This document shows, one piece after another, positions 5,084-31,800 of a stretch of 64,000 nt of DNA. The notes beneath the pieces are model-generated. The model was not told the origin of the DNA. It saw nothing but the letters and a program-made list of their open reading frames with translations, and ran no database searches. A program made the position numbers and the translations under genes. The stretch lies in NCBI GenBank assembly GCA_021789975.1, contig JAJYIT010000020.1, positions 1,048 to 65,047 of the forward strand, in the 5' to 3' direction. The DNA is from Bacteroidota bacterium (GTDB taxonomy: Bacteria; Bacteroidota; Ignavibacteria; Kryptoniales; JAKASW01). Each line of letters opens with the position of its first letter. Within the stretch, counting starts at the first letter, position 1.

Positions 5084-6231
5084 ATGGCTCACATCCCAAG
5101 AGTAATATTGTTTATTGAAACCTCACGGGCATTCGGTCGGGGTCTCCTCTACGGTATAGCAAAGTACTCGAAATTGCATGGCCCATGGGCGTTCTACAGG
5201 GAGCCTCGGGGGCTTGAGACTCACATTCCTCGAATCAGGAATTGGGGAGCTGACGGAATCATAATGAGGGATTCGCTAATCAGCAGGCAGCTGCTGGACT
5301 TGGACCTTCCGACCATAACCGTTATCCACGGTCCGAGCAGAGCTGTAAAGTCTTCCTCGGTAATTACCAACTCGTACGCGATTTCCGTTTCAGCTGCAGA
5401 ACATCTTCTTGAAAGAGGCTTCAGGTCCTTTGCCTACTGTGGTTTCAGCGGATACTATTGGTCGGAAGAAAGGGAGAGGTTTTTTTCGAAAATCCTGAAA
5501 GACGCCGGTTACATGACCGCAGTTTATCGGCGCCCCCAGCCTAAGAAAATAGAGTCTTGGCTCAGTGAGCAACGGAGGATTGCAGCGTGGTTGAAATCCC
5601 TTCCAAAACCTCTGGGCGTGATGGCATGCAACGACGATAGGGGACAGCACGTTCTGGAGGCGTGTAAGGTAGCAGGTCTCGGGGTCCCCGAAGATGTTGC
5701 AGTGGTGGGAGTCGATAATGATTCTGTCATTTGCGACATCTGCGATCCCCCCTCACAAGCGTGGCACTCGATACCGAGAATGGCGGTTTTGCTGCCGCCG
5801 CGCTTTTGGACAGGATGATGAATGGCCAGAAAGCAGGGAATCAGGAAATTGTAGTTAATCCATCGCATGTCTACACGCGACAAACCACAGACATTACTGC
5901 GGTTGACGATCCTGAGGTAGTAAAGGCGATATGTTTCATAAGGACAAATGCCAGAGAGCGGATAAGTGTAATTGAAGTTGTCGGAAGCACTTCACTAAGC
6001 AGGCGGGGTCTCGAAACCAGGTTCGGAAGAGCGGTAGGTCGCTCCATCCATCGGGAAATAAGGAGGCGGAGAGTGGAACTGATCGAACAACTCCTTATAG
6101 AGACAAGTATGCCGATAGCTGAGATCATATCCCGATACAATTTTTCGGATGCGGAACATATAGCACGATATTTCCGCAAAGAAAAGGGAATAGGTCTACG
6201 CGAATTCCGGAGACTGCATTCGGCGCCCTGA
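5084..6231 (+). pseudogene. xylR: XylR-type regulator (sugar-binding PBP-like domain + AraC-family HTH) split by a 1-nt frameshift in a C6 run
   Basis: Two overlapping ORFs (5084..5818 and 5731..6231) lie in different frames. The N-part is a periplasmic-binding-protein-like sensor (VILFIETSRAFGRG, VMACNDDRG, VPEDVAVVGVDND). The C-part is an AraC HTH (ICFIRTNA..., IAEIISRYNFSDAEHIARYFRKEKG). One extra C in the C6 run 5747..5752 gives a contiguous ...DICDPPLTSVALDTENGGF..., matching E. coli-type XylR architecture (recalled from memory). Confidence 0.8.
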
Positions 6232-13990: not shown

Positions 13991-15054
13991 AAAAGGCAGT
14001 GCTGTCAGGCGTTCGCAAATTCGAGATAGTCGAGATCCGAAAGCCGACCATCGCGGATACCAGCGAAGTCTTGCTGCGGGTGAAAACCGTGGGCGTTTGC
14101 GGATCTGATCTTCACTACTTCAAAGAAGGGAGAATCGGGTCGCAAGTCGTCAAATTTCCTTTCACTATCGGACACGAATGTTCTGCGGTAGTGGAGGAAG
14201 TTGGCAATAACGTTCAAAGGGTCAAGCCTGGTGATATGGTTGCGATAGACCCTTGTATCTCATGCGGCCAATGTTCGCAATGTCTGAATGGCAGGGAACA
14301 CACTTGCTTGAACCAGCGATTTCTCGGATCCCCGGGGCAAGCCGAAGGTTGCCTTCAGGAATTCTTAGTTATTCCGGAGAAGAACTGCTATCCGGTGCCG
14401 GCAAGATTCACTCCGGAACTGGCGGCACTGGTCGAGCCGTTGTCGATTGGTCATTATGCAGTGAAGCTCATGGTCGCGGCGGTGGCCAGCCAGCGCTCAT
14501 CGGCGATCGGTGATGGTCACCTGACTTCGGCGGTGCTTGGTGTCGGACCTATCGGGCTTGGGACGTTGATGTTCTTGAGGAGAGTACTTCGTGGCACGAT
14601 CATGGTCACCGACAGGTTAGGCTATAGACTTGGTGCCGCCCGGAAGCTCGGTGCGTCATTGACGGTGAATGCCGACAGCGGGGACGTAATCGGGTCGGCG
14701 ATGAACGTGAATCCGGAAATGTTTGATGTCGCGTTCGAGTGCTGCGGTCAGCAGGAGGCGCTTGACCAGGCGATTGAACTGCTGAAGCCCGGTGGATTGC
14801 TCTTCATCGTCGGAATTCCAGAGCTGGACAGAGTCTCCTTCGATATGAACCTGTTGAGGAGAAAAGAAATTGCGATCTACAACGTAAGGCGTCAGAACAA
14901 GAGTATGCAACCGGTGATCGATGCAATTGCGTCTGGAGAGTGCACACCCGAGATGCTGGTTACCCACAGGTTTACACTTGAGAGGACGGCAGCGGCGTTC
15001 AGCACGGCGGCCAATTATCAGGATGGGGTTCTGAAAGCGGTCATTGAATTGTAA
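13987..15054 (+). CDS. Zinc-dependent medium-chain sugar/polyol dehydrogenase
   Basis: 355 aa. Catalytic Zn ligands in GVCGSDLHYF and GHECSAVV. Structural Zn CISCGQCSQCLNGREHTC. Rossmann GVGPIGLG. The GTG start overlaps the HAD stop (GTGA), suggesting translational coupling. Confidence 0.85.
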   Translation: MKKAVLSGVRKFEIVEIRKPTIADTSEVLLRVKTVGVCGSDLHYFKEGRIGSQVVKFPFTIGHECSAVVEEVGNNVQRVKPGDMVAIDPCISCGQCSQCLNGREHTCLNQRFLGSPGQAEGCLQEFLVIPEKNCYPVPARFTPELAALVEPLSIGHYAVKLMVAAVASQRSSAIGDGHLTSAVLGVGPIGLGTLMFLRRVLRGTIMVTDRLGYRLGAARKLGASLTVNADSGDVIGSAMNVNPEMFDVAFECCGQQEALDQAIELLKPGGLLFIVGIPELDRVSFDMNLLRRKEIAIYNVRRQNKSMQPVIDAIASGECTPEMLVTHRFTLERTAAAFSTAANYQDGVLKAVIEL

Positions 15055-15151
15055 GGATGCCGCCGGAAAGTTGGTTGCTGCTTCCGGAGTCGGTTTGCGA
15101 ATAAAAAATAACTTGACAATGAATCTTTATTTGTCCAAATTTCTTCGCATA

Positions 15152-15167
15152 AAGTAACCGATTACTT
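15152..15167. promoter_or_regulatory. Palindrome AAGTAA-CCGA-TTACTT downstream of a TTGACA box (15113..15118); candidate operator of the TBDR operon
   Basis: Perfect 6-bp arms. Located in the 376-bp intergenic region upstream of the TBDR gene. The same AAGTWA hexamer recurs at 25501 and 28630. Confidence 0.3.
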
Positions 15168-15430
15168 AATCGAAAACTTTATCGGAAACATTGAAAGGAA
15201 AGGGCAAAATTCGCGTTTTGGTACGGCAATCGTTCTTCCGCAGATTCTTCAAATCCAAATCACTCAAAGCTCGTTTTGGAGCCACACCTCTCGTCAACAG
15301 CTTGCCTTACCAGCTCTTTCAAATGGCGACCGAACATTTTGTGCTGGCCGTCCCCGGCCAGGAATCTACATCTCGGTAAATTTCCGGATCCCAGAGTTGA
15401 TCCGGGAATAAAAATGCTTAGGAGTAAGAC

Positions 15431-18400
15431 ATGAGGAGCATTGTACTTCCTAAAACTTTTCAAATTCTCTTCTCATTCATGATTGTCATATCGCTGTCCT
15501 CAGTCGCGGCCTATTCTCAGTCTCGTAGCCGTATCCAGGGCACTGTTGTGGACGCGAAAACCGGAGAGGCACTTCCCGGTGTGAACGTTCTTGTTGTCGG
15601 GACAAACCTCGGTGCGGTTACAGATCTCAACGGTAAATATTTTGTTGTGAATGTTCCCGTCGGCACGTACGAGGTTAAGGCATCCATGGTTGGATATACC
15701 CCGATGCTTGTAAAGGATGTGCTTGTTTCCCTTGACAGAGTAGCTACTGTGGATTTCCAACTTCAATCTTCTGAAATACAGACTAAGGAAGTGGTCGTGG
15801 TAGCCCAGCGGAACCAGCTACACCGTGAAGTCTCGAGTACGCAGTTGGTTTCTACCGGTGCACAAATTACGAATACTGCTGGCATAAGGGAGATCAATGC
15901 TTTTCTCGCAAAGCTGCCGGGGGTTTCGACGACCGGCAACGGGTTCCTTACAATCAGGGGCGGGTCCGCAGACCAGGTGGGAACATTAGTGAATGGTTTG
16001 GCTTACGACAATGCCGCCGTGGGTAATGCGGAGACGAGCATCCCCCTAAGCGCTATTGAGCAAGTCTCAGTATTGTCAGGAGGCTACAGCGCGGAGTACG
16101 GAAATTTCAGGTCCGGGCTAATTAACATCACGACAAAAACGGGAACCGAGAATGCGTATCATGCGACCCTCGACATCTCAGCCGACCAGTCCCATATGAG
16201 AAGGTTCGGACAATCGCTATATGATCCGACAAATCCTTTCCTTGCACCTTACCTCAACCCGTCCGTGGCCTTCTCCGGGACACAATCCGGTGTTTGGGAC
16301 CAGTACCAGCAGAATCAACACGCAGCTTTCCTTGGATGGGACCACTATGCCGCGCAATATAATACAGGTAAGCCTCTTGCCCAGCAGGCGTCTCCTCTGG
16401 AATTGTATCTGCTGAGTTCCTGGATGACGATGTCGGTTCCGGACTATCAAGGTCTTCAGCAACAGATTGCGAAAGATCCGACGATCCTCGGAAACATGAC
16501 TATGGCACAAGCAGATTCGTTACTCGGTGCGACTGACAATGCATTTCAGAACCACGCCAATCATGAACAAGGAAGCGACTATAACCTCGACGGAGGTTTC
16601 GGCGGACCTGTTCCGTTCATCGGAAAGGCACTCGGGGGTGCCACCTTCTACGTTTCGAACAATACTAAGAGCTCCAATTATATAGAGCCGGTGACTCTCG
16701 ACAATAGTTTCACCTCCACGTCTCTTCTCACGGTCAAGTCAGCTCCATCAAGTGATATAACGGTTACCCTGAACGGTCTTTGGAAACGCGAGATCGGGGT
16801 GAGTCCCATAAGGCCAGCCTCCGGTGACGCACCGGATATTTCCGGCCGCGGCGGATTCATGCTTCAAGATAATCTCAATTACATCTTCGATAATTCCGGT
16901 ATTACCGGAGACAATTACAACTATCTCTATGACCAGGCGTATTTCCCCATCCTTAATCAGACGACGGTCATGACCGGAGTGACATTAAACCAGTTAATCA
17001 GCTCCAAAACATATTACCAGTTTACCGTGAGCAGACTTGGGATCTCGGATTATTCGCCTACCGGTATGAATAGAGATACAACTCAGATCACACAGATCGG
17101 GCCGTTCAATCTCGATGAATCCCCCTATGGCAAGTTCGCACTCTCGGGCACTCATGATGTCAATGGCTATACGTTTCCAAGCTACGATACTCCAATTGGA
17201 ATGTCGACATTCAGGTTCAGAGGTAAAGAGGGTGATCTCCACGATAACTCGAAGACATACCAGTACGAGTTGAAGTTCGATTTGTCATCCCAGATCGGCG
17301 ATCACAACTTCGTGAAAACGGGAGTTGAGTTCAACATGTTCGACCTTCAGCATAATTTTTGGGAACAGTGGAACAACAACGCTTACAACACTTATGAGTT
17401 CAACTACCATCGCACGCCGAGTCAAACGGGAGTGTACGTTCAGGACCAGATAAACTACGAAGGGATCGTAGCGAATCTGGGTGTCAGGTTCGATTACTAT
17501 TTCGGCGGCGGCGGTCTCTGGCCGGCGCAGCCTTTTGCCCCGATCTTCCGGCCGCAGACGGTCGATACTTCTCTCTATTCATATCTCAACTCGGGGAATT
17601 CGTACATATGGCATCTGTGGTACGCGTATAACGACTCGGTACCCGGCTTCCTCCAGGAAATAAAGAACTATTTGACGGTGAGTCCGCGGATCGGAGTATC
17701 GTTCCCGATAACGGATCGCTCGAAGTTCTATTTCAATTACGGTCAGTTTAGATCCAACCCTCCATACTTTTCTATGTATGAGTTTACCTACCGGTACACA
17801 AAAAACGGTCTGTATCAAATGTCGAATCCTAACCTTGAGCCTCCGCTGACGACTTCTTATGAACTCGGTGTCGAGTACAATGTCTACTCCTCACTGATGA
17901 TGCGCGTCTCAGGCTATTACAAAGACGTATCGGGACAGGAAGGGCAGGTCACTTATCAGACCGTCGGATCATCACTCGGTCTCAACTACACCGGTTATCT
18001 CAACAATCAGTACCAAAGCATACAGGGGATTGAAATAAACCTTTCCAAGAACGACAACTCCTGGATAAATGGCTGGTTGAATTTCAATTACATGCTCACC
18101 AAGACCGGCAACACGGGAGTCCAATACATATATGATATTCCGGTCACGGATCAGTCAAATCTTTATCAGGCGAACGAAGTCCCGACACTTCCTCAGCCCC
18201 GGCTGAACGCAGATGTAACTTTCAGGTCCCCGACTCATTGGGGACCTCAACCCGCCGGTCTTGATCTTCTCGGAGATTGGGAGCTAACCTTATTCGGGGA
18301 ATGGCAGGCCGGAGATTATTTCACATGGAACCCGCTAAACGATGTCCACCTGAGCGATAATCTGCAGTGGCCTGCATACTACCGACTCGACATGAAATTG

Positions 18401-18769
18401 ACGAGGATGTTCAGGGTCGGCGGAATAAATATCGCTGCATACGTCAACATCACGAATGTACTGAATCTGAAAGTGAACGAGATGGGGAACATGTACGCTT
18501 TTTCAAGCGAACTCACCTCATCGAATGACTATGCTCCTAACAATTCGGATGAGGCGCAGTATCTGATGTCGCTTCATCTTCCGATGTACAATTCACCCGC
18601 ATACGATCAACTCCGGCAGCAGAACCCCGGTTTGTATATCCCCGGCCACGACCATGTCGGCGACCTGAGGTCGGGCAGCAAGCCGTATATCAATGATCCG
18701 GATTATGCCAGCGTATTTCTGTACGGCCAGCCAAGAGATATTTGGTTTGGAATAAGAGTTGATTTTTGA
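15431..18769 (+). CDS. TonB-dependent outer-membrane receptor with N-terminal carboxypeptidase-regulatory-like domain (SusC-sized)
   Basis: 1112 aa. Signal peptide present. N-domain IQGTVVDAKTGEALPGVNVLVVGTNLGAVTDLNGKYFVVNVPVGTYEVKASMVGY, plug region (LTIRGGSADQ), and a long barrel ending ...IWFGIRVDF. Confidence 0.9.
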   Translation: MRSIVLPKTFQILFSFMIVISLSSVAAYSQSRSRIQGTVVDAKTGEALPGVNVLVVGTNLGAVTDLNGKYFVVNVPVGTYEVKASMVGYTPMLVKDVLVSLDRVATVDFQLQSSEIQTKEVVVVAQRNQLHREVSSTQLVSTGAQITNTAGIREINAFLAKLPGVSTTGNGFLTIRGGSADQVGTLVNGLAYDNAAVGNAETSIPLSAIEQVSVLSGGYSAEYGNFRSGLINITTKTGTENAYHATLDISADQSHMRRFGQSLYDPTNPFLAPYLNPSVAFSGTQSGVWDQYQQNQHAAFLGWDHYAAQYNTGKPLAQQASPLELYLLSSWMTMSVPDYQGLQQQIAKDPTILGNMTMAQADSLLGATDNAFQNHANHEQGSDYNLDGGFGGPVPFIGKALGGATFYVSNNTKSSNYIEPVTLDNSFTSTSLLTVKSAPSSDITVTLNGLWKREIGVSPIRPASGDAPDISGRGGFMLQDNLNYIFDNSGITGDNYNYLYDQAYFPILNQTTVMTGVTLNQLISSKTYYQFTVSRLGISDYSPTGMNRDTTQITQIGPFNLDESPYGKFALSGTHDVNGYTFPSYDTPIGMSTFRFRGKEGDLHDNSKTYQYELKFDLSSQIGDHNFVKTGVEFNMFDLQHNFWEQWNNNAYNTYEFNYHRTPSQTGVYVQDQINYEGIVANLGVRFDYYFGGGGLWPAQPFAPIFRPQTVDTSLYSYLNSGNSYIWHLWYAYNDSVPGFLQEIKNYLTVSPRIGVSFPITDRSKFYFNYGQFRSNPPYFSMYEFTYRYTKNGLYQMSNPNLEPPLTTSYELGVEYNVYSSLMMRVSGYYKDVSGQEGQVTYQTVGSSLGLNYTGYLNNQYQSIQGIEINLSKNDNSWINGWLNFNYMLTKTGNTGVQYIYDIPVTDQSNLYQANEVPTLPQPRLNADVTFRSPTHWGPQPAGLDLLGDWELTLFGEWQAGDYFTWNPLNDVHLSDNLQWPAYYRLDMKLTRMFRVGGINIAAYVNITNVLNLKVNEMGNMYAFSSELTSSNDYAPNNSDEAQYLMSLHLPMYNSPAYDQLRQQNPGLYIPGHDHVGDLRSGSKPYINDPDYASVFLYGQPRDIWFGIRVDF

Positions 18770-18792
18770 AAGCTCAATCAATGGAGATTCTC

Positions 18793-20985
18793 ATGAGATT
18801 TTTTGAATTCAGAAAACCCGAAGGCACGTCCAGAGGGATCCCCGCGATTGTATTGTTAATGCTGTTGTCTACAAGTGCACTCGCACTCGCCCAATCTCAG
18901 TCGCCCGAGCTTCAAACAACAACGATACGTCTCGGCCGCTTGTGGCTCGGCATGGCGGCAAACGGCGGGAAAATGAACTTCGATCCGCGCGGCGGTTTCT
19001 TCCCGAATGACTATGGCATTGCGGCCGACAGGTCTCAATATGCGCAGGCATTCACCGGATCAGGGATCTACCTCACCGCTACTCACTGGTTTAACCCGCT
19101 AACAGACTCAATTGAGAATGTGGCGGTGTATTCGACCGTAACTGACTCTATGCCGATCGGAAGGGTCATACAGACTTTAACCAATTATCTCAGGTACAAA
19201 TACCCGACAATTCAGATCGGTGGCGCCTCAGGAAATATTTCACTTTTCGGAACTTATAATCCTGATTACCCCGGCTTCGCGAACCACACCTACGACGAAG
19301 CGGCCGAAGTTGTCGATTCGACTATCCTTGGTGTGACGATAGATAGAAAAGTCTATGCCTGGTCGCAGAATTACAATAACGATTACGTTATCACTGATCT
19401 GGTGTTCACAAATGTTGGAGGCGATACCCTCGACAGTCTCTACATAAACATGCAGGAGACGGGTGCCAACATGTATTACTCTAACGGGAACAATCCGCAG
19501 GGGACGTTCGACCCTACCATGGTGTGGCAGCATTACTACGGCGGACGGCCCGGCGATACGATGCGTGTCTTTTATGAGTATAGTGCGGATAATCCCAAGC
19601 TTCCCGGCGATGACATGGGAGCGCCACAAGTGTCCCAGAACGGCAGGCTCCTTATGCCGAACATGAATTATTATGCGATCCTACATGCGTCTAGAGAGCC
19701 GTATACGGATTCTACACAGGATATCGATGATCCGCTTGAACCAAAAGTAACGTACATGGGTGTTGCCACTGCCATTCCATTTAACCAGGCAAGTGATCTG
19801 TATGGCAACAAAAACTTTTATGCAATCAGGGGAGCATTCTCGAACGTCTATCCGATGACCGGCGAAACCACGGGTGCATATCATGGATTCAACAATGATG
19901 AACTTGGTACAGCCGACTACACCGCTAATCCGGCAGGGCAGTACGAGGGCATCTCTTACCGGAGCTGCAGCTTTGGTCCGTATACTTTTTATCCGGGACA
20001 GAAACTTCATATCGTTTACGCGAGTGGTTTTGCCGGCATAGGTTATCGTATGGGTCAAGAGATAGGTCAGGAGTGGCTTGACGGCACTCTGAAAGATCCG
20101 CCGAATGCGTCACAAATCCCCGGGTGGAATGCCAGAACGGGCTTGTTGCCCAGCAACTTCGCATTTCCTGCCGGAGCTACAGATGAGGACATGATAAAGG
20201 ATCGCTGGATCAGTTTGGGAATTGATTCGGTAATGCTGAGCGCCTGGCGGGCAAAATGGAATTACGAACATGATTATAGCATACCACAAGCTCCCCCTCC
20301 GCCGCAAACTGTAACTATTGCGCCGACGGCGGGTGCAATTCAAATCCAGTGGTCCGACCCTGCGGCTGAACAGATGCCTGATTTCGCCGGCTATAGAATA
20401 ATGAGAAGAGTTTCGAATTTCGATACGGTCTTTTACCAGCCGATCTACAATTCTGATTCGACTGACCTGGGTGTCACTCACCTATTCAATGACTCGATTG
20501 CATACTATGGAGCACAAGTTTATTACTATGTCCAGGCAAAAGCAAGGATACCCTACAACGACCCCGCCGCCGATCCTACCACACGAGGGAAGATCATATA
20601 CAGCGGACGGGCAATGTATCCGAATTTCTATTTTGCCAGGCCCACCAATTTTGCCCAGGACGACCTCTCGAAAATCAGGATTGTACCGAATCCGTATAAC
20701 ATCAAAGACCCACTACTATATTCTGCTAGCCGCGGATTGGGTGCAACAGATGGAAGAGCAATAGTCTTTTACAATTTACCTGCTGTCTGTACCATCAAAA
20801 TATACACGGAGAATGGAGATCTAGTCCAGACTATCAATCACCCGACCCCGGGAACGAGCGGAGGATCGGAAACTTGGACGATGCTTACTTCCAGCCAGCA
20901 GGTAATTTACAGCGGTGTGTACATCGCGGTCTTCCAGACACCCGATGGAAGAGTGTCGTATCAAAAATTCCTGGTTGTGAGGTGA
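18793..20985 (+). CDS. Secreted protein of unknown function with an FN3-like domain and a divergent T9SS-CTD-like C-terminal beta-sandwich
   Basis: The track ORF 18766..20985 overlaps the TBDR stop. ATG 18793 (GGAG 6 nt upstream) gives signal peptide MRFFEFRKPEGTSRGIPAIVLLMLLSTSALALAQS with no lipobox Cys. FN3-like PPPPQTVTIAPTAGAIQIQWSD...GYRIMRR. The C-terminus IVPNPYN...CTIKIYTENGDLVQTI...SGVYIAVFQTPDGRVSYQKFLVVR parallels the CTDs elsewhere in the window. Confidence 0.75.
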   Translation: MRFFEFRKPEGTSRGIPAIVLLMLLSTSALALAQSQSPELQTTTIRLGRLWLGMAANGGKMNFDPRGGFFPNDYGIAADRSQYAQAFTGSGIYLTATHWFNPLTDSIENVAVYSTVTDSMPIGRVIQTLTNYLRYKYPTIQIGGASGNISLFGTYNPDYPGFANHTYDEAAEVVDSTILGVTIDRKVYAWSQNYNNDYVITDLVFTNVGGDTLDSLYINMQETGANMYYSNGNNPQGTFDPTMVWQHYYGGRPGDTMRVFYEYSADNPKLPGDDMGAPQVSQNGRLLMPNMNYYAILHASREPYTDSTQDIDDPLEPKVTYMGVATAIPFNQASDLYGNKNFYAIRGAFSNVYPMTGETTGAYHGFNNDELGTADYTANPAGQYEGISYRSCSFGPYTFYPGQKLHIVYASGFAGIGYRMGQEIGQEWLDGTLKDPPNASQIPGWNARTGLLPSNFAFPAGATDEDMIKDRWISLGIDSVMLSAWRAKWNYEHDYSIPQAPPPPQTVTIAPTAGAIQIQWSDPAAEQMPDFAGYRIMRRVSNFDTVFYQPIYNSDSTDLGVTHLFNDSIAYYGAQVYYYVQAKARIPYNDPAADPTTRGKIIYSGRAMYPNFYFARPTNFAQDDLSKIRIVPNPYNIKDPLLYSASRGLGATDGRAIVFYNLPAVCTIKIYTENGDLVQTINHPTPGTSGGSETWTMLTSSQQVIYSGVYIAVFQTPDGRVSYQKFLVVR

Positions 20986-20988
20986 GCG

Positions 20989-21999
20989 ATGAAGATTACT
21001 ATGATAAATAATTTGAAGAACTTCCTGCTCATTTCAATCCTATCTCTGTCCGTTTCGACAGTTCGAGCTCAAGTGACGATCAATAAGGTGGCACAGAGCA
21101 CAATGAACTTCCAGTTGGTGAGTATCTCTCCCGTGGCTAGTGGAATGGGCGAAGCATATTATGCTGTCGGTACCGGGGCAGATGCGATATTCTATAACCC
21201 GGCGGGAATGGCTGAACTGACGGGGAAAGTGAACGTGGTACTCGACTACACACAGTGGATTGCGGACATAAATTACTATGCCGGTGCGGTGGCCTGGAAC
21301 ATCGGGAATTACGGCTCGGTCGGCTTCAGCGTCCTGTCGGTCAACTATGGGACTATCAACGGCACCAGTCTCAATCCACTTGGCGGCTATATTGACAATG
21401 GTCCGGTGAAAAATGTAGGTGCGTATTCAGTAGGGTTGACTTACGCAAAACATATAAATACTCAATTCGAAGTAGGAGGCAACGCCCGCTTGGTTGGTCA
21501 GGACCTTGGCGATAATACGTTTGTTGACGGGACGACCGCGAAGAACGACGCAACGAAACTTGCATTCGACCTCGGGGTGAAGTACATCACCCTATTCAAC
21601 GACTTCAGATTCGGAATGGCGATTAGAAACTTCTCGTCGGATATCACCCGCGAAGTCATCGCCGAACAACTCCCCCTTACTTTTACAATGGGTGCGGCAA
21701 TCGACTTAATGGACTTTGTTAATAAGAGTCATTCAAAGGGAACGGCATTCACACTTGCGGTAGATTTTCTTCATTCCAATAGTTATTCAGAACGGTTCAA
21801 CATGGGGGTGGAGTACAAATTCCTCGGCATGCTTGCCTTGAGGGGCGGATACCAGACGAACAGAAGTCTGCAGTCGTGGTCGGCTGGCATTGGATTGAAC
21901 ACGATTGTTGCGGGGAATGAATTGCAGGTGAATTATTCGTACTCCAAGATGCAGATCTTTAGCGGTGTAAACAGAATTTCCATAGCTATGTCTTTCTGA
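20989..21999 (+). CDS. PorV/PorQ-family-like outer-membrane beta-barrel protein
   Basis: 336 aa. Signal peptide ...SVSTVRAQ. The N-terminal motif FQLVSISPVASGMGEAYYAVGTGADAIFYNPAGMAEL resembles the PorV/PorQ signature (recalled from memory). Alternating beta-strand pattern, with terminal ...ISIAMSF. Confidence 0.6.
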   Translation: MKITMINNLKNFLLISILSLSVSTVRAQVTINKVAQSTMNFQLVSISPVASGMGEAYYAVGTGADAIFYNPAGMAELTGKVNVVLDYTQWIADINYYAGAVAWNIGNYGSVGFSVLSVNYGTINGTSLNPLGGYIDNGPVKNVGAYSVGLTYAKHINTQFEVGGNARLVGQDLGDNTFVDGTTAKNDATKLAFDLGVKYITLFNDFRFGMAIRNFSSDITREVIAEQLPLTFTMGAAIDLMDFVNKSHSKGTAFTLAVDFLHSNSYSERFNMGVEYKFLGMLALRGGYQTNRSLQSWSAGIGLNTIVAGNELQVNYSYSKMQIFSGVNRISIAMSF

Positions 22000-22003
22000 T
22001 TGA

Positions 22004-23953
22004 ATGATGAAAATAATTGTTCCTCCTCTTGTTGTGTTGGTGATAGCTGTGAGCGGTTCCGGCTTGTCCGGGGCCGCTTGCGGTTCTGCGGCCGCGGCAA
22101 ACATTCCTGTCGATCCAGTGAAGTGGTCCAGGGAGTTGGCCGGAGCAGTGATTGCAAAGTACCCGACCTGTCTTCCGTGCGACACTACGATGACTTGGAA
22201 CTATGAACAAGGTGTGATTCTCAACGCGCTATGGAGAGTTTGGCGGGCAACCGGCGATAGTGCTTACTTCGATTACGTAAGGAGGAGCATCGACTACTAC
22301 CTGGCAGACGAGGGCTCGATCAAAACTTATGATGCCAATTTATTCAGGCTGGATGATGTTGCGCCGGGAAGAGCGGTGCTCGATCTCTACCGCTCGACAA
22401 GAGAGCCCAGGTATAAATTGGCAGCGGAAAGATTGAGGAAGCAACTGCTTGAGCAGCCGCGCAACAAGGATGGTGGTTTCTGGCATAAAAAGATTTACCC
22501 GCACCAGATGTGGCTCGATGGTCTTTACATGGCCGAGCCGTTCTATGCAATGTACGCGAAAACATTCGACGAGCCCTCGGTTTACCGCGATATCGCCAGG
22601 CAGTTTATCCTTATGGCGCGTCATGCGAGGGATCCAAAGACCGGCCTTTTCTATCATGGCTGGGATGAGTCCAGAACCCAGAAGTGGGCGAACCCCGCTA
22701 ACGGTAACTCTCCGACTTTCTGGGGAAGGGCGATGGGTTGGTATGTTATGGGGCTGGTGGACGTGCTCGACTATTTGCCGGAGGAGCAACCTGAGAGAAA
22801 TGAATTGGTCACGATATTTCGCAATCTCTCCTCGTCCATCCTGAGGTATCAAGATAAGAAAACTCATCTTTGGTGGCAGGTAGTTGATAGAGGCGACGCC
22901 GGCGGCAATTACCTAGAGAGTTCTGCCTCTGCGATGTTCGCATATGCTTTTGCGAAGGGTGTGAACAACGGATATCTTCCGGCGAGGTATCTCCGCGCAG
23001 CAAGGGCAGCCTTCGATTGGCTGGTACAGTATGAAATCAAGATGGTGAATGATTATCCCGTCTTGCTGAATACATGTGCGGGCACGGGGCTTGGTGGGAT
23101 GCCGTTTAGGGATGGTTCCTTCAACTATTACGTGACAGTTCCGAGACGAGATGACGATTTCAGAGGGCTCGGGCCGGCGATAATGTCGGCGCTGGAAATC
23201 GAAAAGGCTTCAAATGCCGACAAGGTGGTTTATCTCGACTCTTATCATAACAATGAATGGGTGCGGTCTAAGCAAGGCAAAGAGATTCGCTATCACTATA
23301 TTTGGGAGGACACGGCGAATTCCGGATATTCCCAGCTGGGCAAGATAATCCGCTCGCTCGGAGCCAGGATCAATGAGTCACGTGAAGTCATCAGCAGCCG
23401 AATCCTTGCTAAAGCGAGCGTGTACATGATAGTCGATCCCGATACTCGTCGGGAAACAAGACATCCTCACTATATCGACAACGATGAAATATCGGCGCTA
23501 GTTGGCTGGGTTGAGAAAGGCGGAGTCCTTGTAATCTTTGCCAACGATAGCGGGAATTGCGAGTTCGAACACCTCAACAAACTCGCCGGGCAATTCGGCA
23601 TCGGTTTCAATTACGATAGCCGCAACGACGTGGTTGGAAAGAATTATGAAATGGGAGCCTTCGCCAGCCTTCCGCAGAAACCGATGTTCGAAAATGTGAG
23701 GAAGATTTTTCTTAAAGAGATCTCCACACTAACCGTTCATAAACCGGCAAGGTCGGAACTCGTTAGAGACAAAGACGTCATAATGGCATCGGCAAATTAT
23801 GGGAAGGGCCTTGTGTTTGCGGTAGGTGATCCATGGTTCTATAATGAATATATTGATAATCGAAAACTCCCCGCGGGATTCGATAATTATGATGCTGCCC
23901 GTAGTCTGTTCGCCTGGTTGCTTAAGAAGGCGAAGCCGGTCACACATCGGTGA
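22004..23953 (+). CDS. GH105 unsaturated rhamnogalacturonyl hydrolase fused to a ~250-aa C-terminal domain (DUF4350 / class-I glutamine-amidotransferase-like fold suspected)
   Basis: 649 aa. The N-half has YteR/GH105-type features (WNYEQGVILNALW, GGFWHKKIYPHQMWLDGLYM, TFWGRAMGWYVMGL). The C-half (from about 23220) reads VVYLDSYHNNEW...VYMIVDPD...GGVLVIFANDSGN...GLVFAVGDPWFYNEY. Confidence 0.8.
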   Translation: MMKIIVPPLVVLVIAVSGSGLSGAACGSAAAANIPVDPVKWSRELAGAVIAKYPTCLPCDTTMTWNYEQGVILNALWRVWRATGDSAYFDYVRRSIDYYLADEGSIKTYDANLFRLDDVAPGRAVLDLYRSTREPRYKLAAERLRKQLLEQPRNKDGGFWHKKIYPHQMWLDGLYMAEPFYAMYAKTFDEPSVYRDIARQFILMARHARDPKTGLFYHGWDESRTQKWANPANGNSPTFWGRAMGWYVMGLVDVLDYLPEEQPERNELVTIFRNLSSSILRYQDKKTHLWWQVVDRGDAGGNYLESSASAMFAYAFAKGVNNGYLPARYLRAARAAFDWLVQYEIKMVNDYPVLLNTCAGTGLGGMPFRDGSFNYYVTVPRRDDDFRGLGPAIMSALEIEKASNADKVVYLDSYHNNEWVRSKQGKEIRYHYIWEDTANSGYSQLGKIIRSLGARINESREVISSRILAKASVYMIVDPDTRRETRHPHYIDNDEISALVGWVEKGGVLVIFANDSGNCEFEHLNKLAGQFGIGFNYDSRNDVVGKNYEMGAFASLPQKPMFENVRKIFLKEISTLTVHKPARSELVRDKDVIMASANYGKGLVFAVGDPWFYNEYIDNRKLPAGFDNYDAARSLFAWLLKKAKPVTHR

Positions 23954-24008
23954 CTCTGGATTTGTCAATGCGCAAATGCTTACAACAAACTGAAAGCAAA
24001 TAGATTCT

Positions 24009-25421
24009 ATGTCTGACAAGAGTTTAAACGATTACCGATTCTTTGACCCTCACGAGACTGTTAGAAAAACCGCTTTTGAGCTTTATGAAAGCGTAAGAAA
24101 TCTTCCAATCATCAGTCCTCATGGCCATGTTGATGCGAGAGTTCTGGCGGAGAACAAGCCGTTCCCTGACCCCGCGGAGCTGATCATAATACCTGATCAC
24201 TATATTTACAGAATGCTCTACTCTCAGGGAATTCCCCTGGAGTCGCTGGGAGTCCCGACGCAAGATGGTACAGTAGTCGAAAAGGATCACAGGAAAATAT
24301 GGCAGATTTTTGCAGATCACTTTTACCTCTTTGCGGGTACACCTACAGGCGTGTGGCTTTCGCATGAGGTTGCAGAGGTGTTCGGTATTGAAGAGAAACT
24401 GGAGTCGGCGAATGCGATGAGGGTTTACGACCGGATAGCTGAGAAGCTGCAGACGAAGGAATTCCTTCCGCGAGCCTTGTTCGAGAGATTCCGATTGGAG
24501 GTCCTCACGACTACCGATGCTCCGGGAGACACGCTAGAGTATCATAAGACCCTGCAGAAATCCGGCATGAAAGGCAGAGTGGTACCGTGTTTCAGACCGG
24601 ATCCGGTCGTGAATATCAAATCCACTGGATGGAGAAATGCGATCCGCGATCTCAGTAGAGAATCAGGGGTAGAAGTTAAGTCTTACAAGAAATATATCGC
24701 CGCACTCGAAAAGAGGCGTGAGTTTTTCAAATCGATGGGCGCAGTCTCGACGGATCAGGGTGTTGAGAGTCCTTATGCACATAAGCTGTCGCCGATAAGA
24801 GCCGAGGCAATCTTCAAGAACGCGCTGAGCGGGAAGGCGACCGAAAAAGAATCGCAAGAGTTCACTGCCAACATGTTGATGGAAATGGCGAGGATGAGTG
24901 TAGAGGACGGGTTGGTGATGCAGATCCATGCGGGGGCAATGCGGAACCACAACGTTGCCGTGTTCAAGAGGTTTGGTCTCGATAAGGGCGGAGATATTCC
25001 GGTTCAAACTGAATACACCAGGAATATGCACGAGCTATTGAACGCATTCGGCAATAATCCGGGTTTCACGGTTGTGGTTTTCACTCTGGATGAATCAACT
25101 TATTCACGTGAGCTTGCACCGCTGGCAGGACATTACCCCGCGATGAAACTGGGTGCATCGTGGTGGTTCCACGACAGCATCCAAGGAATGACGAGGTACC
25201 GGGAGAGAGTATTGGAAACCGCGGGGGTGTATAATACGGTTGGCTTTACTGACGACACCCGGGCTTTCCTTTCAATTCCTGCTCGACACGATCTCGCCAG
25301 GCGGATCGACTCAAACTATCTCGCAGGCCAGGTCGCACGTCATATTATCAATGATAAGGAAGCGGCTGTGATCATAAAGGACCTTGCTTACGGACTGGCC
25401 AAGAAATCGTACAAACTGTGA
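24009..25421 (+). CDS. uxaC: Uronate (glucuronate/galacturonate) isomerase
   Basis: 470 aa. NLPIISPHGHVDARVL, IIPDHYIYRMLYSQG, WWFHDS. Full-length UxaC architecture. Confidence 0.93.
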   Translation: MSDKSLNDYRFFDPHETVRKTAFELYESVRNLPIISPHGHVDARVLAENKPFPDPAELIIIPDHYIYRMLYSQGIPLESLGVPTQDGTVVEKDHRKIWQIFADHFYLFAGTPTGVWLSHEVAEVFGIEEKLESANAMRVYDRIAEKLQTKEFLPRALFERFRLEVLTTTDAPGDTLEYHKTLQKSGMKGRVVPCFRPDPVVNIKSTGWRNAIRDLSRESGVEVKSYKKYIAALEKRREFFKSMGAVSTDQGVESPYAHKLSPIRAEAIFKNALSGKATEKESQEFTANMLMEMARMSVEDGLVMQIHAGAMRNHNVAVFKRFGLDKGGDIPVQTEYTRNMHELLNAFGNNPGFTVVVFTLDESTYSRELAPLAGHYPAMKLGASWWFHDSIQGMTRYRERVLETAGVYNTVGFTDDTRAFLSIPARHDLARRIDSNYLAGQVARHIINDKEAAVIIKDLAYGLAKKSYKL

Positions 25422-25500
25422 GCACATCAATCCATCGTATGCTTATTGGAAGCAGCGCACCATGATGATGAATCCTTCCTTAGCAGGAGTTATATTCGTA

Positions 25501-25518
25501 AAGTTATCGGGAAAGTAA
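25501..25518. promoter_or_regulatory. Direct repeat AAGTTA-N6-AAGTAA (12-bp phasing) 29 nt upstream of the LacI-family regulator start
   Basis: AAGTTATCGGGAAAGTAA. It shares the 9-mer AAGTTATCG with the site at 28630..28638. Confidence 0.3.
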
Positions 25519-25546
25519 ATTTGTCGATCCAGCGAGAGGAGATTTT

Positions 25547-26596
25547 GTGAATAGCAAGTCGCACATCACACTTAGCGATATCGCAAAGAAGTTGAACGTC
25601 TCGAAGGTTACTGTGTCCAAGGCTTTGCGGGGGCATCCGGATATTTCTAAAGAGACGACAAAGCGTGTTAAGAAGACGGCGGAGGAACTCGGCTATACTC
25701 CAAATTTCGCGGCCCGCAATCTATCATCCCGGAAGTCGAACACAATTGGGGTCGTCGTCCCGAAAATTGCGCATTTCTTTTTCAGCGCAATCATAGAGTC
25801 GGTCTATGACACCGCGTTTGTTAACAACTATGACATCGCTCTGACTGTTTCGCAAGAAAACGCCGAACGCGAGCGAAAGCACGTGGAGACTCTGCTCGCG
25901 ATGGGGGTCGACGGTATTGTCGTGTCGGTTTCTCAGCAAACTAAGGATAAAGCGATATTCGAAAAAGTGCTCGACAGAGGTGTGCCGCTTGTGTTCATGG
26001 ACCGTGTGATGGAAATTAAGGGAACGAGTCATGTCACGGTCGATGATCGCGGTGGTGCATTTAATGCCACCGAGCAGGCGATCAAAAACGGCTACAGGAG
26101 AATTGCCCACTTCGGCGGATATAAAGAGATTAATATCGGTAAGAACAGGTATGCAGGCTTTGCCGACGCCATGAAACAATATGGTGTACCTATTGACCCC
26201 GAGTTGGTCATTTACGGTGGATTCGGCGAAAGCTATGGCTACGAAGGATTCATGAAGCTATACCATAAAGGGAAACTCCCTGAATTTATTTTCACCGTCA
26301 CCTATCCGGTCGCCTTAGGAGTGTATGCCGCAGTTGCAGAGGTTGGCATGAAGATACCTGATGATATCGATATAATTTGCTTCGGTAACAGTAACATAAG
26401 CCGTTTCATAAAGCCGGAAATGTCTTTCGTGAATCAACAGACGGAGCTTATAGGAAAGACCGCCATCGAGTTGGTACTGGAGCATATCCGTGATTCCGAT
26501 GAGTTCAAACCGAAGCATGTCCAGATTCCGACCGAGCTCGTCCTCCGTGAGACCTGCGTAAAGAACAAGCGTGTCGACGCCCCAGTTAGTTTCTGA
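25547..26596 (+). CDS. LacI-family transcriptional regulator
   Basis: 349 aa, GTG start. HTH ITLSDIAKKLNVSKVTVSKALRGHPDISKETTKRVKKTAEELGYTPNFAARNLSS, followed by a PBP-type sugar-binding core. Confidence 0.92.
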   Translation: MNSKSHITLSDIAKKLNVSKVTVSKALRGHPDISKETTKRVKKTAEELGYTPNFAARNLSSRKSNTIGVVVPKIAHFFFSAIIESVYDTAFVNNYDIALTVSQENAERERKHVETLLAMGVDGIVVSVSQQTKDKAIFEKVLDRGVPLVFMDRVMEIKGTSHVTVDDRGGAFNATEQAIKNGYRRIAHFGGYKEINIGKNRYAGFADAMKQYGVPIDPELVIYGGFGESYGYEGFMKLYHKGKLPEFIFTVTYPVALGVYAAVAEVGMKIPDDIDIICFGNSNISRFIKPEMSFVNQQTELIGKTAIELVLEHIRDSDEFKPKHVQIPTELVLRETCVKNKRVDAPVSF

Positions 26597-28802: not shown

Positions 28803-31800
28803 ATGAAGAAAAGAACGACTGCCTTGGGGCTACTAGTTCTAATTACTTTTGCATCTGTTCCAGGAACCAGCTTGCTGTTCGCACAGACTACCGGCGAATA
28901 TCGATCTAATTCACCCGTCGCAACAGGTCCCTGGAACTGGAGCAACCCGGCCGCATGGCAAACATGGAATGGAACGGCGTGGGTGGCTGCGACTGTGGCT
29001 CCCACCGGCAATGAACCGAAGATAACGATCCAATCCACGGACTCGATCTACGCAGGCGCGGTGACAATCACCGATACTCTGGTGAATCAGGGAGAATTGG
29101 TTGCGGACACTAACTCTGCGGGCCAGTCGGTACTGGCTTTCGGCAGCGGCGGAGTGTACCAGCATGCAGAGAATGGCGGCTCTATTCCCTCAGCAACATG
29201 GAACACGGGATCGACCTGCTTGGTTACCGGCGCTACATCAAGTGCACCATCAAATGCGAATCAGAACTTCTACAATTTCGCATGGGATTGTGCGGGTCAA
29301 ACGACTGGTCTCAACGTAGCCTGGAACGGAAACACGATAGGTGGAAACCTTGTTGTCTCTGTTCCTTCGAGTCAACAGTTTCGTATGTCGAACAACAATG
29401 CCAACGGCGGGAATCCGATAACTATCAAGATACTCGGTAATATCGTTGTGAATAGTGGGAAACTCACCCCGACCGGGTCAGGCAGCGCTCAAACCTACAC
29501 GATCATCGACAGCGGAAATATCTATGTCAATTCTGGTGTATTGTACGTCAGCGGAGGAAGCGGCGGAGTTGTAACATGGTACTGCTACGGAGATACGTTC
29601 TCCACGGCAGACGGCACATCGTTGCAAACCTCCAACAGCTCCTCAAAGTGGATTTTTGCTCGCAGCGTTTCGCACGCCTTTACCACAACCGGCACCGTGA
29701 AATACACGGGCGGAATGACGTTTGAAGTTGACACAAACGCAACGCTTGACCTGGGTACAAGTGTCATTGCAGGAAGCTCGGCGAAGTTTGTGCTGGACTC
29801 AGCGGCAAATCTGGTTACTGCTCAGGCCGGCGGCCTCAACGGTAATCTCACAAATGCCGGAGGGAACACTTTCAGCCCTTACGCCAATTATGTCTTCAAC
29901 GGTACCGCGGCACAGGTGACCGGTGCTCTACTGCCGGCGGAAGTGAATGGCCTTACTGTCAACAACCCAGCTGGCCTGACATTGAGTGGATCCGTAAGTG
30001 TCGCTGATACTCTAAATCTTGTAAGCGGTCAACTGATCCTCGACACCAACCATGTCATGGCGACCACTCTCGTCGGCGGTTCATCCGCGAATTATCTAGT
30101 CACAGACAGCACCGGAAGCTATTTAGGAATCCCAAACGTCGGAACGACGAAGGTTCTTTTCCCGGTCGGAACGACTGCGGAAGGATATTCTCCGGTGTGG
30201 GTAACTAATACCGGAACGGCAGATACTTTCTCAGTTTCTGCCATGGCTGATTCTTCAGTCCCTGCAGGTGTCGGACGAGTTAACGTAAAGTGGAATGTCT
30301 TGGAGAGCCACCCTGGCGACGCAGTCTCTACACTGGCGTTCGGCTGGATGGCAGCAGCGGAGAATCCTGCATTCGCATCCGATCCTTCCGCATACGCGCA
30401 GATTTACAGCTTGAGTCCATACTACAAGCAAGTTGGTTTGGGCGCCTACAGCAGCCAATTTACAACTGAACCTTACACGCTTTCACGAATTGGAATTGCG
30501 ACGCTGGGAGAGTTCGGCGTCGGAAAATTTGTCCTGAACGTGACTCCGCAGATTGGAGACTTCGGCTCGGTTCAGAGCGGCCCGTGGAGTTCGCTCTCTG
30601 TTTGGAAACAATGGGACGGTAAAGGCTGGAACACGACACCTGTTGCAGTTCCTGACGGCGAAGTGAACGTGTTCATTAACAGAGGCGACACGGTTACGGT
30701 TGACGCGGTTGACTCAGTAGGCGGCAGTCTTCTCGTCGACGGCTATTTGAAAGATGTTGCGGGCCTCAAAGCAAGTGGCGCCAATGTGGTGTTTGATAGC
30801 GCCAGTGTTTACGAGCTCGCTCATAATGGCGGCGGCGTGGCAGGAATACCGACCGCGACGTGGAAAACCGGCTCCACTTGTCTGATTACCGGTGAGGCGG
30901 GGAAAATTTCCTCCACGACCGGTTTCAACGCAAACCAGGATTTTTATAATCTTGTGATTGATGCTGCTTTCTCTTCGAATAAAGACCTGGCGATGTATGA
31001 TAACACCATCAACGGCAATCTGGCTGTGAACAACACAGGAAGCGCCCGTGTTTATCTGACAAGTCCGGGCGCGGGGACGCCTAACACGATCACTATCAAG
31101 GGTAGCATTCTTTTGACAGCCGGCCAGTTCGCATCGAATGGATCGGGGAGTCCCGCAGACATAACCGTCAATAGCTACGGCAACATCACGGCAACCGGCG
31201 GCAACTTCAGCTTGTCAAGAGGATCCGGCCCAATTGTACTCTGGAATTTCTACGCGGATTCACTGACTCTATCGAATGCCACAACACAGGTATCCGGAAC
31301 GAACGATGTGCTGGTCTTTAAGAAACCCTTAGGCCCGTCCGGCAAGCCTCAATCCGGGTACCAGTATCTAACTTTCCAGAACGTTTCATACAGCGGCGGC
31401 GGACTTCCGATTGAAGTCGATACCGGTGCAACACTAGTTATGGACACGAGTTCTATCGGAGGAAGCGGAAACTTTACCGCCGATTCCGGCTCGACAATCA
31501 TGACGGGGAACTTCCTCGGTTTGAATGGAAGCATTACAACTTCAGGAACGGTAACTTTGAATCCTGGAGCCTCGTTTGTTTTCAACGGCACCGTTCATCA
31601 GATAACGGGCTCAATGCTTCCGGGCGCCGTAAAGAATCTCACGGTAGATAATTCAAAGGACGTATCTCTATCAAAGAGCACAGATGTCACCGGAACGTTG
31701 ACCATGACTAACGGCAACCTCGTTCTCGATACAAATAACGTCGTTGCTGCAGCGGTGTCCGGAGGTTCTCCGACCAGCTATGTCGCAACTGATTCCACCG

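Follow-up and report, generated by a model that had tools for sequence, protein, structure and literature searches.

Genes of the three-gene unit

The window, by which we mean the whole stretch of 64,000 nucleotides (nt) analysed here from contig JAJYIT010000020.1 of a Kryptonia-like Bacteroidota bacterium (assembly GCA_021789975.1), is a locus for utilising pectin and hexuronate. Three adjacent genes within it, termed here g1, g2 and g3, respectively encode a TonB-dependent receptor, a secreted protein of an unannotated family whose C-terminal domain (CTD) resembles those of proteins that a type IX secretion system (T9SS) exports, and an outer-membrane barrel of the PorV/PorQ family. The unit that they form is widespread and appears to be undescribed. 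Together with the gene that directly follows (g4), its features, with lengths and residue positions in amino acids (aa), are:

15431-18769, + strand: g1, TonB-dependent receptor, 1112 aa (Pfam domains)
15533..15799, + strand: g1 N-terminal extension, carboxypeptidase-D regulatory-like, aa 35-123 (PF13715; PDB sequence match 5aq0)
15827..16108, + strand: g1 plug, aa 133-226 (PF07715)
18766-20985, + strand: g2, secreted protein, member of an unannotated family, 739 aa (TTG start) or 734 aa (ATG start at 18781)
18766..18891, + strand: g2 signal peptide, aa 1-42 (predicted type-I cleavage ALA/QSQSPEL, inferred from sequence)
18892..20295, + strand: g2 N-domain, aa 43-510, mostly beta, with helices (427-501) at its end (DSSP of the AlphaFold2 (AF2) model)
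20296..20565, + strand: g2 FN3 domain, aa 511-600 (superfamily profile, Pfam fn3, Foldseek)
20668..20985, + strand: g2 CTD-like C-terminal beta-sandwich, aa 635-739 (hidden Markov model (HMM) searches and Foldseek)
20989-21999, + strand: g3, PorV/PorQ-family outer-membrane barrel, 336 aa (NF033709, Foldseek)
22004-23953, + strand: g4, unsaturated uronyl hydrolase of glycoside hydrolase (GH) families GH88/GH105 fused to DUF4350, 649 aa (PF07470 354.6 bits, DUF4350 34.3 bits)

The four genes are co-directional, with gaps of 3 nt between g2 and g3 and 4 nt between g3 and g4. How g1 and g2 join is determined by which start codon is used: as g1 terminates with the TGA at 18767-18769, the TTG start of g2 at 18766 yields a 4-nt overlap, whereas the database protein P0001 (734 aa, 100% identical to g2) begins at the ATG at 18781, leaving an 11-nt gap; a third possible start is the ATG at 18793. 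The preliminary description of this DNA had placed all four open reading frames (ORFs) where we find them, and its two short gaps stand, while the overlap that it gave for g1 and g2 is lost if the ATG at 18781 is the start. Scans of positions 14900-25600 for sigma-70 promoters and intrinsic terminators returned signals no better than those of shuffled sequence; hence, the reading of the unit as a single operon is based on the spacing together with the conserved gene order. The g4 product probably acts in the periplasmic processing of imported pectic oligosaccharides.

Conservation and joint divergence of the triad

More than 250 homologues of g2 were recovered, the best 120 of which share 50-79% identity with it, and those that are named are all termed 'hypothetical protein'. 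Taxon labels, which are sparse, place them in Kryptonia, Melioribacter and Ignavibacteria, KSB1, Marinimicrobia and Fidelibacterota. In the wider superfamily, the number of cluster representatives is 1651 at E<=1e-3, falling to 413 at E<=1e-10 and to 116 at E<=1e-30. No Pfam or NCBIfam model exists for g2. The nearest relatives of the window's genes lie in metagenome-assembled genomes (MAGs) labelled Kryptoniota, Kryptonia or 'Bacteroidetes bacterium'.

The loci examined comprise seven close relatives obtained with a single-protein search for related loci (L001-L007), three more remote orthologues from pectin loci (L008, from Melioribacter; L009; and L010, from Fidelibacterota) and eight paralogues at 27-38% identity (L011/12, L013/14, L015/16, L018, L019, L020, L021 and L022), with distant synteny taken from the contigs that encode the g2 homologues, among which L018 is too short to judge. 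Wherever flanks exist (L001-L016, L019-L022), a receptor with a CarboxypepD_reg domain is encoded directly upstream of the g2 homologue and a PorV-like barrel of ~330 aa directly downstream. This order and the tight spacing are kept in every informative locus with the special CTD of g2, at g2 identities between 90% and about 28%, across Kryptonia-like MAGs, Melioribacter, Fidelibacterota and unclassified contigs. Synteny of the triad thus extends from close to very distant relatives. The notion that the adjacency of the three genes is functionally meaningless, be it through chance clustering or as an artefact of annotation, is effectively refuted by this synteny, and the confident AF2 models of g2 and g3 speak in the same direction.

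In the paralogous triads, identities to the reference proteins are 29-33% for the receptor, 28-30% for g2 and 33-38% for g3. The three proteins therefore diverge together, as expected of cognate sets, and across 29 contig-matched pairs the identities of g2 and g3 to the reference are correlated (r = 0.87). Further, the contexts of these paralogous triads differ, with a LacI regulator in some and an RbsD_FucU protein along with a Laminin_G_3 protein in others; the module is therefore generic rather than specific for pectin.

The short contig L018 (positions 1-2761) contains two tandem g2-like genes, the C-terminal 138 aa of the upstream copy being 35% identical to the CTD region of g2. Some loci may therefore encode two g2-like partners.

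A SusC-sized receptor outside the SusC family

The g1 product has the build that had been attributed to it, namely that of a SusC-sized TonB-dependent receptor with a carboxypeptidase-regulatory-like N-terminal domain. Its 1112 residues include matches to CarbopepD_reg_2 (PF13715; aa 35-123, 72.6 bits), Plug (PF07715; 44.2 bits) and TonB_dep_Rec_b-barrel (PF00593; 70.9 bits), in addition to a signal peptide and the large barrel itself, and the N-terminal extension recovers a carboxypeptidase D domain among PDB sequences (5aq0, E 1.2e-5). The stretch KEVVVVAQR, which precedes the plug, is a plausible TonB box. Against the SusC/RagA model TIGR04056, g1 scores 74 bits with a cut-off of 368.25, and the match covers model positions 3-226 only, i.e., the N-terminal extension and the plug. 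Membership in the SusC family was rejected on this basis, and by these profile scores g1 is SusC-sized and SusC-like at its N-terminus, yet outside that family.

Domains of the secreted protein g2

Like the receptor, g2 has the general build ascribed to it earlier: a protein of about 730 aa (739 or 734, depending on the start) with a cleavable signal peptide, no lipobox cysteine and an FN3-like domain. The predicted signal ends with ALA/Q, directly before Gln43, and the junction lacks a Cys. The A/Q junction, followed by a conserved PEL and again devoid of Cys, recurs in the family N-termini that were sampled (20 of the 120 listed homologues). Signal-peptidase-I substrates of Bacteroidota prefer an N-terminal Gln, a preference that the g2 junction fits.

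The AF2 model of g2, built on 39 homologues (predicted local distance difference test (pLDDT) 84.8, predicted template modelling score (pTM) 0.83), is beta-rich over residues 43 to about 425, has three helices within 427-501, and ends with an FN3 sandwich (515-600) and a C-terminal sandwich (635-739), as delineated by DSSP. The FN3 assignment is concordant between approaches: the superfamily profile matches the solved Fn3-like structure 3mpc (E 1.8e-5), Pfam fn3 is matched in 3 of 39 members, and Foldseek returns FN3 domains with a probability of 1.0. No Pfam family matches g2 at E<=0.1, and its only NCBIfam matches are weak and all C-terminal. For the N-domain, no sequence relative was found in the PDB, the family profile returning noise only and a 70-sequence superfamily profile matching FN3 only; Foldseek recovers weak likeness to the phosphorylases 5nz7 (GH94) and 3wiq (GH65), with TMq of at most 0.22.

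A relationship to SusD was considered and ruled out, as g2 has no match to a SusD Pfam family, its model is beta-rich as opposed to the all-alpha TPR-like fold of SusD, and there is no lipobox. Likewise, SusD families are absent from the matches of the 39 g2 members scanned with Pfam, and searches of Pfam, NCBIfam and the PDB placed g2 in no other known family.

Mean column conservation over 103 superfamily members is highest in the CTD (0.55-0.60), followed by the helical/FN3 region, and variability is greatest in the remainder of the N-domain: values range between 0.1 and 0.5 up to aa 480, and the helical block at 481-510 reaches 0.53. The variable N-domain is the candidate for ligand binding or catalysis.

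The combination of a g2-type N-domain and FN3 is also found inside far larger stand-alone T9SS cargo proteins, namely P0385 (1604 aa) and P0388 (1365 aa), and the N-domain can therefore be viewed as a mobile extracellular module. The CTD of P0388 is canonical and above the Pfam cut-off, and P0385 has Chlamydia-PMP-type repeats with a sub-threshold CTD match.

These observations bear on the main rival to a receptor-partner role for the N-domain, an enzymatic one. Under it, g2 would represent a novel enzyme family, for instance of lyases, hydrolases or esterases, and would trim pectic fragments at the surface while anchored by g3 beside the receptor, with no function as a binder or lid. In favour of this, the N-domain is strongly conserved between phyla, with D, H, R, Y and W residues invariant at many positions; on the scale of the superfamily, though, G, P, Y, D and N make up most of its conserved residues. 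The weak likeness to GH94 and GH65 structures points the same way as an enzymatic function, as does the presence of the N-domain in stand-alone proteins with canonical CTDs (P0385 and P0388), which is the build of secreted enzymes. However, no catalytic family is matched in Pfam, NCBIfam or the PDB, and the strict 1:1 pairing with a co-diverging receptor in varied contexts is typical of transporter partners. On balance, we consider it unlikely that g2 is solely an enzyme of this kind.

The C-terminal domain of g2

The g2 C-terminus is CTD-like and stands nearest to the retained CTDs of PorZ and PorU, components of the T9SS itself. All 20 family CTDs searched matched the CTD of the PorZ model NF052228 first (best 2e-8) and also TIGR04183 (best 1.4e-5), with the PorU CTD matched in 17 of the 20. 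The structural comparison agrees: this domain, which runs to the last residue of the protein, recovers PorZ (5m11, E 6.7e-5, probability 1.0) and PorU (6za2, E 1.2e-3) in Foldseek. After the PNPYN motif there is an insertion of about 14-16 residues (aa 643-662) that is modelled with low pLDDT. A divergent CTD-like sandwich with an insertion had been read from the sequence beforehand, and this holds. PF18962 (cut-off 27 bits), which like TIGR04183 is a model of type A CTDs, has no match in the g2 C-terminus, and the type B model CHU_C was matched weakly in 4 of 39 members only (best E 0.0034).

The likeness to PorZ does not extend beyond the CTD. Against the full-length NF052228 model g2 scores 16 bits (cut-off 260), over model positions 692-755 only, which correspond to the CTD, and g2 was accordingly rejected as an orthologue of PorZ.

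The canonical CTDs of the window behave differently, scoring 35-48 bits with TIGR04183 and having other cargo CTDs as secondary matches, PorZ not being listed among these. A further difference emerges from two of the distant pectin loci: between L009 and L010 the g2 CTD is 72% identical and the body 62%, whereas three canonical cargo CTDs show the reverse, with 42-48% in the CTDs and 57-64% in the bodies. The protein P0388, in which a g2-like N-domain is combined with a canonical CTD (37.5 bits), has neither a receptor nor a PorV-like barrel encoded next to it. In known systems, PorU and PorZ are precisely those T9SS proteins that keep their CTDs, bound to PorV and PorQ respectively, and it has been proposed that CTDs are anchored and shielded from cleavage by PorV-like barrels cognate to them, among which are PorP/SprF in the case of type B CTDs (PMC10202324). 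By analogy, g2 may be a T9SS-exported protein that retains its CTD.

The barrel g3 as a PorV/PorQ subfamily

The 336-aa barrel encoded by g3, for which a PorV/PorQ-type affinity had been proposed, matches the PorV/PorQ family model NF033709 over its full length with 157.3 bits (cut-off 90), as do all 29 members of the g3 family. It falls well below the housekeeping equivalogs, with 65.5 bits for PorQ (NF033711; cut-off 220) and 52.2 bits for PorV (NF033710; cut-off 250); in 29 of 29 family members the PorQ score exceeds the PorV score, both being under their cut-offs. By HMM score, g3 is thus classified as a distinct PorV/PorQ subfamily with a slight lean to PorQ. No Pfam match to PorP_SprF was seen in g3.

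The AF2 model of g3 (pLDDT 80.9) has as its best Foldseek matches two structures of PorV from F. johnsoniae, 8gl6_F (E 1.3e-12) and 6h3i_F (E 4.2e-12; TM-score 0.70), the former being PorV in a T9SS complex with a bound substrate CTD. FadL, TodX and CymD come behind PorV, at E 2e-8 or weaker. A FadL-type transporter was therefore rejected as the identity of g3, the E-value of PorV being lower by some four orders of magnitude; the curated HMM and the structure agree in placing it with PorV/PorQ as opposed to FadL/OmpP1 or another barrel family. We propose g3 as the cognate anchor of the g2 CTD.

Two other accounts of the pair g2 and g3 have to be weighed here. In the first, g2 would be an ordinary T9SS cargo protein whose CTD is cut off by PorU, with the product released or linked to lipopolysaccharide, and g3 an independent FadL/PorV-type channel or shuttle that happens to belong to the same operon. 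The general type-A motifs of the CTD and its weak TIGR04183 match would suit such a cargo protein, and the resemblance of g3 to FadL, TodX and CymD (E 1e-8 to 1e-6) would suit such a channel. Yet, conservation within g2 peaks in the CTD and is higher there than in the body, which is the opposite of the pattern in the three canonical cargo CTDs, and its likeness is to the retained CTDs of PorZ and PorU, not to those of cargo. Nor would one expect g3 to diverge along with g2, the relative with a canonical CTD (P0388) to lack a g3 neighbour, or PorV to beat FadL by the above margin. We hold this account to be quite improbable.

The second account makes g2 and g3 a locus-specific PorZ/PorQ-like module that attaches or processes the CTD-bearing pectinases and has no direct role in import. 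It draws on the PorZ model being the first match of the g2 CTD, the higher score of g3 on the PorQ than on the PorV equivalog, the similar lengths of g2 (739 aa) and the PorZ model (757 positions), and the several CTD enzymes encoded in the locus. Against this, the PorZ match is limited to the last ~65 model positions (16 bits against a cut-off of 260), and the N-domain has long strands and helices, with no beta-propeller among its top Foldseek matches. Moreover, a co-diverging receptor is always encoded directly upstream, even in small loci without a visible CTD enzyme, and many paralogous triads are ill-suited to a housekeeping sorting role. In our estimation this is still less probable than the account with ordinary cargo.

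A proposed module for nutrient capture at the outer membrane

Taken together, the above features are compatible with g1, g2 and g3 forming a three-part outer-membrane nutrient-capture module, in which g2 would be exported by the T9SS, docked through its CTD on g3 and employed as the substrate-capture partner of g1; we judge the chances of this to be about even. Under this proposal, g2 would cross the inner membrane via the Sec pathway and be cut by signal peptidase I before Gln43, following which the T9SS would recognise its CTD and move it across the outer membrane. Unlike in the five ordinary CTD cargo proteins of the window, the CTD would not be removed, and would instead stay on the dedicated g3 barrel in the manner of PorZ on PorQ and PorU on PorV. 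The FN3 domain and the helical hairpin would serve as a stalk, with the N-domain held at the surface next to g1. There it might capture, and possibly trim, pectic oligosaccharides released by the secreted GH28, carbohydrate esterase family 8 (CE8) and lyase-like enzymes of the locus, and pass them to g1 for TonB-powered import. Degradation would be completed by the GH105 enzyme, the GH28 enzymes without CTDs, the major facilitator superfamily (MFS) transporter and the UxaC/UxaE/KdgK/Eda pathway.

The two links of this scheme have separate grounds. The coupling of g2 to the receptor is suggested by the strict adjacency and the joint divergence of the three proteins, and the anchoring of g2 on g3 by the homology to the PorZ-PorQ and PorU-PorV pairs together with the unusual conservation of the CTD. 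The variability of the N-domain and the paralogous triads in other contexts further favour g2 being a receptor partner rather than a pectin-specific enzyme. The preliminary description had suggested that a dedicated PorV paralogue holds a CTD-bearing protein next to the receptor as a surrogate of SusD: the architecture, homology and synteny behind this idea have proved solid, and its mechanism is what we infer from them. The part concerning a dedicated PorV paralogue has gained from the PorZ/PorU-like nature and conservation of the CTD, the co-divergence, and the absence of both neighbours in the case of P0388.

Several observations weigh against the proposed module. With TIGR04183, g2 reaches 16.7 bits as a whole protein and 20.1 bits as an isolated domain, both below the cut-off of 23, and in hhalign the g2 CTD profile aligns with the four canonical CTDs of the window over 48 columns at E 8e-4 and a probability of 25%, a link that is suggestive but falls short of proof. 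The argument for CTD retention from conservation draws on a small sample (one ortholog pair with three controls), and that from relatives with canonical CTDs on a single case, P0388. As regards glycan binding, neither Foldseek nor the superfamily profile searched against the PDB found a recognisable carbohydrate-binding fold in the N-domain. Finally, the N-domain maintains ~50% identity across phyla with many invariant D/H/R/W/Y residues, which is unusually conserved for a SusD-like binder; such conservation with invariant polar residues would equally fit an enzyme.

Comparison with known systems

The pair SusC-SusD is the textbook model of glycan import and is essentially confined to Bacteroidota. 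The triad resembles it in having a TonB-dependent transporter of >1000 aa with a carboxypeptidase-regulatory-like extension, a gene for a ~500-aa surface-exposed partner directly following that of the transporter, and a substrate-specific locus of carbohydrate-active enzymes (CAZymes) with a local regulator (LacI in the window, a hybrid two-component system in L009 and L010). It differs in that g1 fails the SusC/RagA model, g2 is beta-rich, unrelated to SusD and no lipoprotein, and there is an obligatory third gene for a PorV-like barrel; further, surface display of g2 would rely on the T9SS, that of SusD on lipoprotein export. None of the annotated ORFs of the window encodes a SusD-family protein. 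The triad had been described as standing in place of a SusC-SusD pair, a wording that calls for a caveat: one canonical SusCDE operon has been reported in the genome of Melioribacter roseus (PMC3534657), and the triad may therefore coexist with SusCD and not replace it.

A second point of reference is the attachment complex of P. gingivalis with its pairs PorZ-PorQ and PorU-PorV, in which an uncleaved CTD is docked on a barrel of the PorV/PorQ family (PMC10202324), an arrangement that we propose for g2 and g3 as well. The g2 CTD is closest to those of PorZ and PorU, and g3 is a PorQ-leaning member of the PorV/PorQ family. However, the passenger of g2 is unrelated to PorZ or PorU, and the triad genes are adjacent, have many paralogues and are coupled to a receptor in catabolic loci, as opposed to being housekeeping parts of the T9SS. 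The SprB-SprF system with its type B CTD offers another parallel, in that the gene for a T9SS passenger is clustered with that for its own PorV-like barrel, proposed to act both as its anchor and as protector of its CTD (PMC10202324). In contrast to it, the g2 CTD is type-A/PorZ-like and g3 belongs to the PorV/PorQ family, not PorP/SprF; such systems are also without a receptor and serve motility and adhesion, not import.

Closest in concept are the transporters outside the SusC family described by Price et al. (bioRxiv 10.1101/2023.03.17.533168) in Bacteroides, which have lids unrelated to SusD that were recognised by conserved proximity. These lids are lipoproteins, nearly all restricted to Bacteroidota and linked to small substrates, and the authors suggested that other diderms lack the machinery for surface export of lipoproteins (bioRxiv 10.1101/2023.03.17.533168). 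As in the triad, a non-SusC transporter is combined with an unrelated, adjacently encoded partner. The partner in the triad differs in being T9SS-type with its own barrel as anchor, and in going with a SusC-sized receptor in a glycan locus.

A description of the triad was not found in the full-text literature, the coverage of which leaves out most papers in subscription journals; to this extent, the earlier remark that no system of this architecture has been described stands.

On a more general plane, it is conceivable that many bacteria of the Fibrobacterota-Chlorobiota-Bacteroidota (FCB) group outside Bacteroidia provide their glycan transporters with surface partners that are no lipoproteins, that a T9SS-exported g2 protein, retained through its PorZ-like CTD in its own PorQ/PorV-like barrel, acts as the lid or capture subunit of a cognate non-SusC transporter, and that this tripartite complex is a second, independently evolved paradigm akin to SusCD with many substrate-specific paralogues. 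We advance this tentatively, with somewhat less confidence than the module itself; triads are seen in Kryptonia, Ignavibacteria/Melioribacter and Fidelibacterota, and for KSB1 and Marinimicrobia the evidence comprises homologues of g2 or g3 only. For the related glycan-degrading phyla, the triad is a concrete and widespread candidate for surface substrate capture without SusCD. If the proposal is correct, type IX secretion and TonB-dependent uptake, which have so far been studied apart, would become linked, and the principle of a barrel retaining a CTD would reach nutrient acquisition, beyond secretion housekeeping and gliding adhesins. Through a T9SS-based route, it would also explain why lids appear restricted to lineages capable of surface lipoprotein export, a point that Price et al. 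had raised. In practical terms, the triad could be used as a marker for loci resembling polysaccharide utilisation loci (PULs) in Ignavibacteria, Kryptonia and Fidelibacterota. The same may hold for KSB1 and Marinimicrobia, and SusD-based PUL predictors fail in every one of these groups.

The surrounding pectin locus and canonical T9SS cargo

On the 5' side of the triad lie genes for a CE8 pectinesterase and a GH43 enzyme, and on the 3' side those for the GH88/105-DUF4350 protein, UxaC, a LacI regulator, 2-keto-3-deoxy-6-phosphogluconate (KDPG) aldolase and a PfkB kinase. Canonical CTDs are borne by four secreted proteins of the locus, GH28 and CE8 enzymes among them. Genes further downstream encode a GDSL esterase, a BD-FAE esterase, two CTD-less GH28 enzymes, an MFS transporter and UxaE.

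A GH88/105 gene is likewise found 3' of the triad in L002-L006, L008 and L010. Its fusion to a DUF4350 domain at the C-terminus is shared by the window gene, L004, L005 and L008, and the proteins of L002, L003 and L010 align over the first ~400 residues only, i.e., over the GH105 part. In two distant pectin loci (L009 1589-4665 and L010 1426-4627), the triad is preceded by genes for a hybrid two-component regulator, a DUF4957/DUF5123 protein and a ~560-aa protein. The DUF5123 proteins of both loci match Por_Secre_tail; the ~560-aa protein matches it weakly in L009 and has no match on record in L010, with a PNPFNP-type C-terminus in both. It may thus be that T9SS CTDs are used by several of the surface components encoded in these PUL-like loci.

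Five canonical CTDs had been counted in the window. Four of them are present in intact genes on the + strand, starting at 28803, 32626, 34609 and 38030; the fifth, at ~48420-48680 on the - strand, is a match (TIGR04183 47.8 bits) that is out of frame with its 480-aa body ORF (48512-49954). The C-terminus of this body ORF itself resembles frameshifted sequence, and the ORF has no Pfam or NCBIfam match, the apparent cause being a frameshift, a pseudogene or an assembly error. Together, the five CTDs, as judged from their sequences, indicate that the organism uses a T9SS. Directly upstream of the frameshifted gene, also on the - strand (49979-50644), is an ORF of 221 aa that has a signal peptide but matches no family, and whose Gly/Tyr-rich composition suggests a small outer-membrane barrel; the two could be a second pairing of a passenger with a barrel.

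Among the intact cargo genes, that at 28803-32552 encodes a secreted protein of 1249 aa in which the canonical CTD (aa 1170-1246) is the sole recognisable domain, leaving a large uncharacterised passenger. The adjoining gene encodes a 630-aa CTD protein with a sub-threshold match to the G8 domain only. At 5084-5818, a 244-aa ORF has a periplasmic-binding-like sensor domain of the LacI/XylR type and no helix-turn-helix, and may represent a truncated regulator gene or a miscalled start. Finally, both UxaC (24009-25421) and the tagaturonate epimerase UxaE (46776-48338, 533 bits) are encoded in the locus, and their joint presence is presumably a sign of the epimerase branch of galacturonate catabolism.

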